A stretch of 32,000 nucleotides of DNA from Bermanella sp. WJH001 (lineage in GTDB: Bacteria > Pseudomonadota > Gammaproteobacteria > Pseudomonadales > Oceanobacteraceae). The notes below the pieces were generated by a model. The model did no database searches, had not been told where the DNA came from, and saw only the letters and a program-made list of their open reading frames with translations. Below, piece after piece: positions 25,001 to 26,106 of this stretch. Every line of letters begins with the position of its first letter. The first letter of the stretch is position 1. The stretch lies in the NCBI RefSeq assembly GCF_030070105.2, contig NZ_CP194951.1, positions 537,981 through 569,980 on the forward strand, in the 5' to 3' direction. Both the position numbers and the translations under genes were made by a program.

Positions 25001-25714
25001 TTAATGCACACGAATGCGAATACTAGATTGATCTGAAAAACGAATATTACTGACGACCACATCACCCAAGGTGCGACCGGATTGATCGCCCTTAACGCGT
25101 AGATTACGAAAAGCAATTTCTTCAATTTCACTAGGCAGTGCCAATTCAATACTGCCGTCTGCGTTCAGCTTGGTTTGTTTGTTGGTATTTTGTTTAACCC
25201 CTTTGATGGTGATGTCCGCATCTAACACACTGGCAATAGGGTTTAGCAGTGTGGCTAGCTCATCGAGAGCACCAAGGTTGTTTTCATCACTAATATCGCC
25301 ACCTTGTGCTTGGTCTATTAGGTTGTTAAAGGCGTCTTGGGCATTTTGAAAACCTTGGCCATCAATGCTGGCTAATTCATCGTCATCAAGTGCTTTTAGG
25401 CCTTGATACTGACTCATTAAGGACGAACTTGTGGCTTCGTTTTGAGATGAATTAGATTGACTCGCAAATGCACCAAATGACATGGGGCCAAGGAGTACGG
25501 CAATCATCGCGGCCCATAGGCGGTGGCGATTTTGTTTCTTCAGGGCTTTTTTAAGTTGGCGCTCGGTTAAGATGCCTTGCTCAATTAGCGCTTCACCCAA
25601 GCGTAAGCCTGAAGTGAGCTGAGATTTAAGGGCGGTATCAAGTTGTAGTTGAGTAATTAATCCCTTTTTGATTAATAACGATCCGAGGCGGCTCTTTTGA
25701 ATGTGGTCGGTCAT
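25001..25714 (-). CDS. Stand-alone MshEN (T2SSE_N) domain membrane protein, putative c-di-GMP receptor
   Basis: The start is ATG 25714, with AGGA 6 nt upstream. Residues 9-61 are RLGSLLIKKGLITQLQLDTALKSQ, then LTSGL, then RLGEALIEQGILTERQLKKALKKQ. These are two perfect copies of the 24-residue MshEN motif separated by a 5-residue spacer. A TM helix (LWAAMIAVLLGPMSFGAFA) and about 150 aa of unknown extracytoplasmic domain follow. Confidence 0.75.
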   Translation of the reverse strand: MTDHIQKSRLGSLLIKKGLITQLQLDTALKSQLTSGLRLGEALIEQGILTERQLKKALKKQNRHRLWAAMIAVLLGPMSFGAFASQSNSSQNEATSSSLMSQYQGLKALDDDELASIDGQGFQNAQDAFNNLIDQAQGGDISDENNLGALDELATLLNPIASVLDADITIKGVKQNTNKQTKLNADGSIELALPSEIEEIAFRNLRVKGDQSGRTLGDVVVSNIRFSDQSSIRIRVH

Positions 25715-26106
25715 GAAAGGTCCTGTGGATAAAACGCCAAAAACGAATAAATATTGAACGTATATTGATTTTGGTTGGGGAGAGAGGCACCCGCAAGCAC
25801 GGGTAATTGACACATGGCATGTCGAGTGCGCGTAGCTTTTCTAAGTATTTGATTTGTATCAGGTAATGAGGTTTAGGCATGCTTAAGCTTTTATTGAGTA
25901 CACTTGTGCTAGTGGCTTATTAGGCAGAATTAATGAGGCAGATAGTAAGATTTAATGGTGCGTTTTATGAAACAGCCCATATAGTGATAAAGGCTCAAGC
26001 TTTACAGATTTTTTTGCTATAGTGCCGCCCTTGTTCTGCTAAGCTCATTGAAAATTGCCAAAAGCAATTTGGAATAATGATCTTATTGCCAAATTGTTTT
26101 GATTAA

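Follow-up and report, generated by a model that had tools for sequence, protein, structure and literature searches.

A PA3740-family protein of Bermanella joins an MshEN c-di-GMP module to an exported domain: a candidate receptor acting across the inner membrane

What could an MshEN module control in a protein that has no secretion ATPase behind it? The question is raised by a gene of Bermanella sp. WJH001 lying in the window, as we call the whole stretch of 32,000 nucleotides analysed here, where a first-pass annotation had proposed a stand-alone membrane protein made of a c-di-GMP-binding module, one transmembrane helix and about 150 residues of no recognisable family. By translation, the reading frame is complete, with 237 amino acids plus stop:

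25001..25714, reverse strand: complete open reading frame of a PA3740-family protein, with 41% identity to P. aeruginosa PA3740 and 93 homologues, mostly full-length
25721..25724, reverse strand: Shine-Dalgarno AGGA, 6 nt before the ATG at 25714

An in-frame extension to 25813, which would have altered the predicted topology, had been named as a possible alternative start. Judged by its sequence context, the ATG at 25714 is the true start codon, because it follows this AGGA, because the homologues begin 5-9 residues ahead of KSRLG in the alignment, and because the frame upstream is not conserved in an 80%-identical relative and runs into stops in six other relatives. A scan for promoters and terminators around the gene gave no signal above that of shuffled sequences.

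The N-terminal part of the protein is made of three elements:

25619..25690, reverse strand: MshEN motif I, residues 9-32, with all fixed positions, within the NF053729 match
25604..25618, reverse strand: spacer LTSGL, 5 residues (33-37), in agreement with the length given by Wang et al. 2016 (PMC5013675)
25532..25603, reverse strand: MshEN motif II, residues 38-61, with the fixed positions and within NF053729; predicted four-helix bundle, with a Foldseek match to 5HTL

Both halves (nt 25532-25690) present every fixed position of RLGxx(L/V/I)(L/V/I)xxG(L/V/I)(L/V/I)xxxxLxxxLxxQ, the 24-residue MshEN motif as printed in PMC5013675 and PMC12943098, just as the annotation had read them. The HMM search proposed as a check agrees with it, since the NCBIfam model NF053729 (“c-di-GMP_motif, MshE-related”) aligns over its full length, positions 1-53 of 53, with residues 9-61, at 61.5 bits against a cut-off of 38 and an E-value of 4.9e-17. 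A chance resemblance to the motif can be discounted because this model covers the same residues above its cut-off. AF2 models the module as a four-helix bundle (pLDDT 82-86 over residues 11-50), and Foldseek places the predicted N-domain on 5htl_B with an rmsd of 1.4 Å over 56 residues, 43% identity and a probability of 1.00. Among 73 homologues, the ligand contacts R9, L10, G11, L25, L39 and Q61 are invariant, and Q32, R38, G40, L54 and L58 are conserved in at least 90%. By motif and modelled fold, the protein begins with an intact MshEN_N module for c-di-GMP and is a putative receptor, binding having been reported for PA3740; its own genome holds 37 GGDEF matches.

A degenerate module, whose MshEN-like helices would not bind c-di-GMP and would merely cap a membrane-anchored structural protein on the cytoplasmic side, is very improbable. 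Binding has indeed been lost in some MshEN homologues, such as XpsE (PMC5013675), but the XpsE substitutions responsible are all absent here, where G11, L19, L29, R38, G40, L54, L58 and Q61 are kept; the motif is strongly conserved in the 73 homologues and, according to a review (PMC8789108), the P. aeruginosa homologue has been reported to bind c-di-GMP.

Behind the module, neither the MshEN_C subdomain nor the T2SSE ATPase was found (no T2SSE match in Pfam), and the match to TIGR02538 (PilB) is limited to the 53-residue motif; what follows up to residue 237, where the protein ends, is a single hydrophobic stretch and an exported part some 150 aa long, so the reading of a module without its ATPase is upheld. 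The 53-residue two-motif site and its four-helix bundle are shared with V. cholerae MshE (5HTL) and the GSPII domains of T. thermophilus PilF (profile E-values of 5.4e-13 and 4e-24), whereas the lack of MshEN_C and ATPase, as well as a last helix that enters the membrane segment, set the protein apart from both. Closer in general plan are E. coli NfrB and Methylobacillus EpsG, which likewise carry MshEN at the inner membrane without dependence on an ATPase, and whose NCBIfam models match the MshEN part with E-values of 5.9e-8 and 7.9e-6. In these proteins, however, MshEN regulates a cytoplasmic glycosyltransferase or kinase of the same polypeptide, whereas the present one carries no cytoplasmic output domain.

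The family itself is known already, contrary to the novelty implied by the first-pass annotation: PA3740 figures in the literature among the MshEN receptors for c-di-GMP, and a swarming phenotype is given for it (PMC5013675, PMC8789108). Our BLASTP comparison aligns residues 6-234 with residues 7-224 of P. aeruginosa PA3740, colinearly and with an E-value of 3e-43, and a joint alignment of 73 sequences contains 14 invariant columns spread across sensor and outer domains. By sequence, the gene is a PA3740-family member, a membership established in this analysis, and probably the PA3740 orthologue. Both proteins show, in the same order, MshEN_N, basic residues, a short hydrophobic segment with S/G-P, a small-x-small site, an L-x-D-x-E-M/L-x-x-V-x-A/G-Q-G motif and a beta-rich C-terminus. 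They differ in length (228 aa in PA3740) and in gene neighbourhood, and Pseudomonas has a shorter hydrophobic segment and a linker that is not rich in Ser and Gln. The outer domain occurs once in the Bermanella genome, as it does in each Pseudomonas-like genome searched, while one genus has additional secreted paralogues and shows a tandem of the fused form with two of them. A profile search with a 5-sequence alignment recovered only close kin (Thalassolituus, Oleispira, Bacterioplanes, Saccharospirillaceae) and two MshE-type ATPases.

Previous work on PA3740 can be traced with some confidence to the P. aeruginosa homologue used here, whose N-terminus agrees with the PA3740 residues in the supplement of PMC5013675, bar scattered differences in what is a machine-read table, and which includes LKKALKKQTNLR, a peptide for which c-di-GMP binding is reported (PMC8789108). 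In Wang et al. 2016 (PMC5013675), PA3740 appears among the MshEN proteins, with a part in swarming; for the binding of its peptides to c-di-GMP, the review PMC8789108 credits Duvel et al. The same 2016 study saw a “highly divergent T2SSE_N1 domain” in what follows the motif, a description that finds no support in our analysis, where this stretch reads instead as a hydrophobic segment with an exported domain behind it.

The way in which sensor and outer domain are connected is the crux of the problem:

25463..25531, reverse strand: signal-peptide-like segment, residues 62-84, with an NRHR n-region, hydrophobic core 66-75, G76-P77 and a c-region ending in A82-F83-A84
25403..25462, reverse strand: Ser/Gln-rich low-complexity linker, residues 85-104, with pLDDT <50 and with length and sequence that vary among homologues

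The proposal of one transmembrane helix stands insofar as there is a single hydrophobic stretch (residues 66-84, with the hydropathy peak at residue 68), but its anatomy, as revealed by column counts over the 73 homologues, is that of a signal peptide. A basic n-region precedes an h-region of about 13-15 residues, a helix-breaking Pro77 and a conserved small-x-small site, and only the N-terminal extension of 60 aa is atypical; R65 and A68 are present in all 73 sequences, P77 in 72, and about 69-70 of them carry small residues at what would be positions -3 and -1. The site is kept across groups with differing flanks (AFA/S, MASA/N, MASA/D and VKA/D, with the slash after position -1). Whether the segment is a membrane anchor or a cleaved signal peptide decides if signalling across the membrane is possible at all.

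The protein may hence be a pre-protein, with a Sec signal peptide bearing the MshEN extension, in which c-di-GMP gates targeting, translocation or cleavage; signal peptidase I would cut after A84 (after ASA in Pseudomonas) and free the periplasmic domain, and the messenger would control the supply of a periplasmic subunit, with no conformational signal through the membrane. We regard this alternative as a serious one, albeit on the unlikely side. It draws on the n/h/c anatomy just described, and a distance of only 4 residues between Q61 of the binding motif and R65 at the start of the segment would also suit it. The short segment and conserved small-x-small site favour cleavage, which would uncouple the sensor from the outer domain and thus speaks against an anchor. 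On the other hand, the 19 residues from 66 to 84 are long enough for a membrane span, and there would be less reason for R65, A68 and A72 to be so strongly conserved if the segment were cut off and lost. In the AF2 model, moreover, helix 51-79 is continuous, with MshEN helix 4 running into the hydrophobic segment, and we counted this continuity in favour of coupling across the membrane.

What lies beyond the segment was described as having no recognisable family:

25349..25402, reverse strand: GLKALDDDELASIDGQGF, residues 105-122, DUF6160-like entry motif of the outer domain, with G105, L109, Q120 and G121 at least 90% conserved
25004..25348, reverse strand: body of the exported domain, residues 123-237, helical over 123-162 and beta-rich over 163-237, ending in TLGDVVVSNIRFSDQSSIRIRVH

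That description holds for Pfam and NCBIfam, where the outer domain matches no family, but not beyond them, given the PA3740 family over the full length and the relatives of the domain alone. A phmmer search with residues 93-237 gave 106 matches among 50%-identity cluster representatives, which refutes the idea of a domain without relatives. It is as strongly conserved as the sensor in the 73-homologue alignment, with D186, G187, P194 and I197 invariant. Its structure, whose prediction had been advised, was only partly informative: a first AF2 model was poor (pLDDT 55.6), and a deeper alignment raised the value to 64.1 overall and to about 78 for the beta part, yet Foldseek against the PDB matched the MshEN part only and gave no fold for the outer domain.

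These relatives bear directly on the pre-protein alternative. The outer domain, of about 135-150 aa, also occurs as predicted Sec-secreted stand-alone proteins of about 160 aa, in which the entry motif follows directly after an ordinary signal peptide. MshEN is present in 44 of 105 outer-domain representatives and absent from the other 61 (median 164 aa), some of which are fragments, and most of the MshEN-less ones examined have a plain signal peptide at the same place, as cleavage would lead one to expect. The 20-30-residue linker, however, is absent in the stand-alone forms and fits a tether. In a class-level search, the stand-alone form was found in 2 of 400 genomes.

The entry motif is also the stretch that matches Pfam DUF6160 in the stand-alone relatives, and it links the domain to a larger group of secreted proteins. 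DUF6160 (PF19657) proteins and Acinetobacter FilA (NF050077, “putative pilus system protein”) share with it the post-signal motif h-x-D-x-E-h-x-x-h-x-G/A-Q-G and a strand pair S-h-G-x-h-x-h-x-x-h-x-h...h-x-h at the very end of the protein. The similarity is faint: the 237-aa protein has no match to PF19657 even at an E-value of 10, nor to NF050077 at its cut-off of 220 bits, while stand-alone relatives score 12-28.5 bits with PF19657 (cut-off 27) over model positions 1-38 only, and a distant one scores 19.4 bits with NF050077. With a broadened domain HMM, the top non-self matches in its own genome are DUF6160 proteins (E-values of 0.0024, 0.0097 and 0.042), the matches falling at the post-signal motif and the extreme C-terminus; hhalign also aligns the extreme C-termini with DUF6160/FilA-like proteins of this genome, below significance (probability <2%). 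Membership in FilA or DUF6160 was rejected, as the scores stay below the curated thresholds and indicate a remote relation only; in our best reading of these sub-threshold similarities, the outer domain would be related, as a small form, to the secreted DUF6160/FilA-like proteins.

The phyletic distribution also links the two, in that the outer domain occurs almost only in genomes holding DUF6160 genes. Among 401 order-level genomes, DUF6160 is found in all 29 that bear the domain versus 22 of the 372 others, and the 151 Pseudomonadaceae genomes divide into 32 with both, 1 with the domain only, 2 with DUF6160 only and 116 with neither, the lone domain-only copy being interrupted by a TAG stop. 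The Fisher p of about 1e-30 for this co-occurrence overstates independence, as the genomes counted are related. In one genus, the two are found together in the same 2 of 14 genomes. DUF6160 proteins are usually of 150-900 aa, with ordinary signal peptides and in three-gene clusters, two of which lie in the Bermanella genome; the gene was never seen adjacent to them in the genomes examined, and lies about 200 kb from the cluster in four Pseudomonadaceae genomes with both on one contig.

If the segment is cleaved, this coupling suggests a more specific version, in which MshEN extends a Sec signal peptide under the control of its ligand and c-di-GMP meters the supply of a nucleating or capping subunit for DUF6160 proteins; we hold it as rather doubtful. 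The reading that we prefer, with a probability of roughly 55%, is that of a PA3740-type receptor through which c-di-GMP would act, across the inner membrane, on envelope proteins of the DUF6160 type. In the cytoplasm, an MshEN_N four-helix bundle, of which our analysis established the motif and the predicted fold, would bind c-di-GMP, an activity reported in published work for the P. aeruginosa homologue. The protein would be anchored in the inner membrane, N-in/C-out, with its outer domain, about 135 aa long, facing the periplasm, and occupancy of the site, 4 residues away from the membrane segment, would change the position or oligomeric state of that domain. This change would in turn control how the DUF6160 envelope proteins, whose genes lie elsewhere in the genome, are anchored, assembled or released, so that inside-out signalling could govern a surface behaviour such as swarming, a phenotype likewise known from the literature on that homologue. 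Here we infer the topology, the membrane retention and the target, while the relatives of the domain and its phyletic coupling to DUF6160 were observed directly.

LapD of Pseudomonas fluorescens offers a precedent for such a circuit, with a degenerate EAL domain that binds c-di-GMP, two transmembrane helices, a HAMP domain and a periplasmic domain that sequesters the protease LapG. The likeness would lie in the proposed logic only, where cytoplasmic c-di-GMP is read out by a periplasmic domain acting on an envelope or surface protein; unlike LapD, the 237-aa protein has no match to GGDEF, EAL or HAMP in Pfam and NCBIfam.

A third possibility, which we consider improbable, is that MshEN acts on a cytoplasmic or inner-membrane partner, such as the flagellar or pilus machinery, with the outer domain doing no more than place or stabilise the protein in the envelope. 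The swarming role mentioned above points in this direction, together with the fall of PA3740 mRNA in a motABmotCD stator mutant (PMC3174259) and the precedent of MshE, PilB and NfrB, where the domain regulated by MshEN is cytoplasmic and catalytic. In one family, moreover, flgA and flgN adjoin the gene (four loci read, with FlgA, FlgN and a cyclophilin confirmed by Pfam at one of them), but they do so in convergent orientation and in this family only. Deletion of PA3740 had no biofilm effect in a FleS/FleR study (PMC8335546), and such an output would leave unexplained both the strict coupling to secreted DUF6160 proteins and a conservation of the outer domain equal to that of the sensor.

The survey of homologues and neighbours that had been recommended did find homologues, but no conserved operon partner. 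The divergent trxB and the downstream PIN-PhoH gene are syntenic within the own family only, and relatives from other families adjoin flgA/flgN and a cyclophilin, or an AMP-ligase, or lie upstream of a DctM permease. Because contexts differ between families, the neighbours were rejected as functional or operon partners, and none of them supports the receptor model. Some relatives carry, between the gene and PhoH, an acidic lipoprotein of 993-1191 aa that belongs to no family; it was likewise discarded as a conserved partner, having no homologue in the Bermanella genome.

Although PA3740 has figured among the c-di-GMP receptors since 2016 at the latest, no mechanism accompanied it, and the picture of its family changes here from a diverged cytoplasmic T2SSE_N1 to a sensor placed on a signal-peptide-like segment and followed by an exported domain. 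The signal-peptide anatomy, the secreted relatives of the outer domain and the co-occurrence with DUF6160 appear not to have been described so far. An orphan receptor and an orphan family of secreted proteins can now be tested as a pair, in an organism for which ordered mutant libraries exist. MshEN connected with an exported domain by a membrane or signal segment may be a general route for c-di-GMP to the envelope that needs neither an ATPase nor a LapD-type receptor; if export gating were the true reading, it would amount to post-translational, messenger-gated protein export and give the first functional handle on DUF6160 (“Fil-like”) proteins.

The string DDDELASIDGQGF (residues 110-122) within the entry motif also deserves a comment. 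A double-glycine leader reading of LDDDELASIDGQG was rejected, as the motif comes after a Sec-type segment, on the periplasmic side, its Glu is not conserved and the consensus is A/G-Q-G. C39 peptidase domains are cytoplasmic, and hence away from a motif on the periplasmic side. In some stand-alone relatives the motif ends in GG and shows a weak match to bacteriocin-leader models.

Every fixed position of the published 24-residue MshEN motif is present in both residues 9-32 and residues 38-61 of the following product, and the two motifs are linked by five residues, LTSGL:

25001..25714, minus strand: PA3740-family open reading frame of 237 aa (ORF translation)

The protein matches the NCBIfam model NF053729 (‘c-di-GMP_motif, MshE-related’) over the model's full length at 61.5 bits (E 4.9e-17), the curated cut-off being 38 bits, and a profile of 73 family sequences matches both V. 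cholerae MshE (5HTL, E 5.4e-13) and T. thermophilus PilF (E 4e-24). In the AlphaFold model, residues 9-61 form a four-helix bundle (pLDDT 82-86), which fits onto 5HTL with an rmsd of 1.4 A and 43% identity. A match of this quality lies well outside what chance would give; it would have gone unseen by Pfam alone, which returns a borderline DUF4388 match only. The first-pass annotation had thus been right about the two-part motif and its position at nt 25532-25690. The substitutions that cost XpsE its binding are all absent here, and a degenerate MshEN module is highly improbable. The start codon also stands at the ATG at 25714, with AGGA 6 nt upstream: in the homologue alignment KSRLG is invariant and the proteins begin 5-9 residues ahead of it, while the in-frame stretch up to 25813, earlier raised as a possible true start, shows no conservation even in an 80%-identical relative and runs into stop codons in six others.

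The database search turned up 93 homologues, almost all of them full length (233-287 aa), those with a named source being annotated as ‘hypothetical’ and coming from Bermanella and related marine gammaproteobacteria; relatives occur, among others, in genomes of Thalassolituus, Oleispira, Bacterioplanes and Saccharospirillaceae. When the C-terminal 145 residues alone served as query, 29 of the 401 genomes searched within the same order had the domain, several of the 29 being large Pseudomonas-like genomes whose proteins (225-239 aa) share the architecture. A search from one of these led to a 228-aa protein, P0247, with 491 member sequences named P. aeruginosa. Its N-terminus agrees, bar scattered differences, with the PA3740 residues that Wang et al. 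2016 give in their supplement (PMC5013675; machine-read table), and it contains LKKALKKQTNLR, the c-di-GMP-binding stretch of PA3740 that a passage of a review (PMC8789108) credits to Duvel et al. The Bermanella protein is 41% identical to P0247 across residues 6-234 (E 3e-43), and is therefore a new member of the known PA3740 family. Since PA3740 already figures in Wang et al. (PMC5013675) as an MshEN protein with a part in swarming, and later literature speaks of ‘the MshEN PA3740’ (PMC7122816), the initial idea of a novel receptor type was overstated; what survives of that interpretation is the intact receptor module with one hydrophobic segment and an exported domain behind it, not the novelty nor the supposed lack of domain relatives. 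We add here a corrected architecture for the family, secreted relatives of its outer domain (the C-terminal exported part) and a near-perfect co-occurrence of this domain with DUF6160 proteins, which together give PA3740 a concrete candidate partner.

Wang et al. 2016 (PMC5013675) assigned the whole PA3740 region behind the motif to a ‘highly divergent T2SSE_N1 domain’, a reading that we do not find supported, as a signal-peptide-like segment, a linker and the outer domain follow. In the predicted structure, helix 4 of the bundle extends unbroken to residue 79, and column counts over 73 homologues reveal a common signal-peptide anatomy in residues 62-84: a basic n-region with invariant R65, a hydrophobic core of ~13-15 residues (A68 invariant, A72 in 71/73), G/S at 76 followed by P77 (72/73), and a small-x-small site six to nine residues past P77, which reads AFA|S in our protein, MASA|N in Thalassolituus/Oleispira, MASA|D in Pseudomonas and VKA|D in another group. 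Beyond it lie:

Residues 85-104: Ser/Gln-rich linker, variable among homologues, low-confidence model
Residues 105-121: conserved motif G-L-x-x-L-x-D-x-x-L/M-x-x-V/I-x-G/A-Q-G, preceding a helical stretch
Residues 163-237: beta-rich end of the outer domain, pLDDT ~78

The structure prediction proposed for the C-terminal domain yielded a modelled beta-rich end; a Foldseek search turned up no similar solved structure for the domain.

The outer part had been described as having no recognisable family, but a phmmer search with residues 93-237 returned 106 matches among 1.84 billion representatives. MshEN is carried by 44 of the 105 analysed, and the remaining 61 (median length 164 aa, some being fragments) lack it; those examined have an ordinary Sec signal peptide, with the domain starting directly with M/L-x-D-x-E-L-x-x-V-S-A-Q-G. 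Because the domain exists alone behind Sec signal peptides, the MshEN unit seems to have been added ahead of a secreted protein that already existed. In one genus (g3) of Bermanella's own taxonomic family, each of the five genomes sampled holds two or three copies of the domain, as in one tandem trio:

L051:341-2632 (genus g3): fused MshEN form of 242 aa, then two signal-peptide-only paralogues of 204 and 173 aa

The conserved cleavage-site pattern and these signal-peptide-only relatives make a serious alternative, and the main rival, of a reading in which the hydrophobic segment would act as a true signal peptide and free the domain, with c-di-GMP gating export or cleavage and no transmembrane conformational change; we consider it possible but less probable than membrane anchoring.

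The strongest new result is the co-occurrence with DUF6160. Among the same 401 genomes, the outer domain is present in 29 and DUF6160 (E at most 1e-5) in 51; all 29 hold DUF6160, against just 22 of the other 372. Among 151 Pseudomonadaceae genomes, 32 have both, 1 the domain only, 2 DUF6160 only and 116 neither; the six of 21 genera with the domain are the identical six with DUF6160, and in one genus both occur in the same 2/14 genomes. The sole domain-only genome, which has no DUF6160 gene, carries a decayed copy:

G907 C3:171380-171619 (Pseudomonadaceae): PA3740-type gene reduced to a 94-aa frame, with an in-frame TAG

The Fisher p-values (~1e-30) overstate independence, since the sampled genomes are related; concordance inside a genus and joint decay do speak for a functional link. 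The DUF6160 genes are separate from and non-adjacent to the PA3740-type gene, lying ~200 kb away in the four genomes where both are placed on one contig. On its contig C1 the Bermanella genome carries DUF6160 genes in two tandem clusters of three, neither of them flanked by a recognisable chaperone, usher or further assembly gene:

L064:4285-8349 (C1 ~734-738 kb): DUF6160 proteins of 391/191/774 aa
L063:3919-8191 (C1 ~1093-1097 kb): DUF6160 proteins of 460/170/391 aa

A 366/204/783-aa frame pattern recurs among Pseudomonas-like genomes.

The outer domain and DUF6160 are likely, albeit unproven, remote relatives. The stand-alone forms match Pfam DUF6160 across its first 38 positions (signal peptide plus motif; best score 28.5 bits, cut-off 27) and, weakly, NCBIfam FilA (‘putative pilus system protein’); the Bermanella protein matches neither. 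When an HMM of all outer-domain representatives was run on all 12,440 ORFs of this genome, the top non-self matches were DUF6160 proteins (E 0.0024, 0.0097 and 0.042, with three more between 0.5 and 2), aligned at the post-signal motif and the extreme C-terminus; hhalign pairs the same terminal strands, without significance. The most likely reading, to which we give a probability of roughly 55%, is that of a c-di-GMP receptor anchored in the inner membrane, whose outer domain would engage DUF6160 envelope proteins, so that c-di-GMP may control an envelope or surface structure from inside. Its logic would be like that of LapD, with entirely different parts.

The neighbourhood names no operon partner, either for this gene or for its relatives. 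trxB is the divergent neighbour and PIN-PhoH follows 238 bp downstream, an order kept only inside the taxonomic family, and the conserved-neighbour survey suggested at first pass found that neighbours differ between families. In some relatives a lipoprotein of 993-1191 aa, matched by neither Pfam nor NCBIfam and lacking a homologue in the Bermanella genome, is inserted between the PA3740-type gene and PIN-PhoH:

L007:7081-10656 and L009:6997-9978 (two relatives' loci): very acidic lipoprotein, lipobox LAGC/LSGC

In another family (f24; L039, L040, L046, L050) the gene is convergent to flgA and flgN and adjoins a secreted cyclophilin (FlgA, FlgN and Pro_isomerase confirmed by Pfam at L039), a weak hint of motility that agrees with the reported PA3740 swarming phenotype. 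A purely cytoplasmic output tied to the motility machinery seems unlikely.

Three MshEN proteins are encoded in the Bermanella genome, the one studied here and two others:

L011 (C1 ~174-177 kb): canonical MshE-type ATPase of an msh-type locus, MshEN motif intact (67 bits)
L013:1168-1719 (C1 ~40.1-40.7 kb, outside the window), minus strand: second small MshEN protein, ~168 aa, start ~MKPNYRLGDLL, NF053729 58 bits

The ATPase is preceded by an ExeA/MshM-like ATPase and a putative MshN-like protein (MshN by eye), and the genome would thus also have a classical MSHA-type pilus controlled by c-di-GMP. The second small protein has a similar basic and hydrophobic segment (…KQHWLRKVAAITALVMAPLSF) and is alike in design, but its short outer part (~85 aa) is unrelated and matches no family. 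The genome is well provided with c-di-GMP signalling: GGDEF gave 37 matches, some of them duplicated on a second contig; those on C2 are identical in E-value and frame length to matches at C1 ~1.296-1.331 Mb, so that C2 looks like a duplicate of this segment, be it a true repeat or a redundancy of the assembly.
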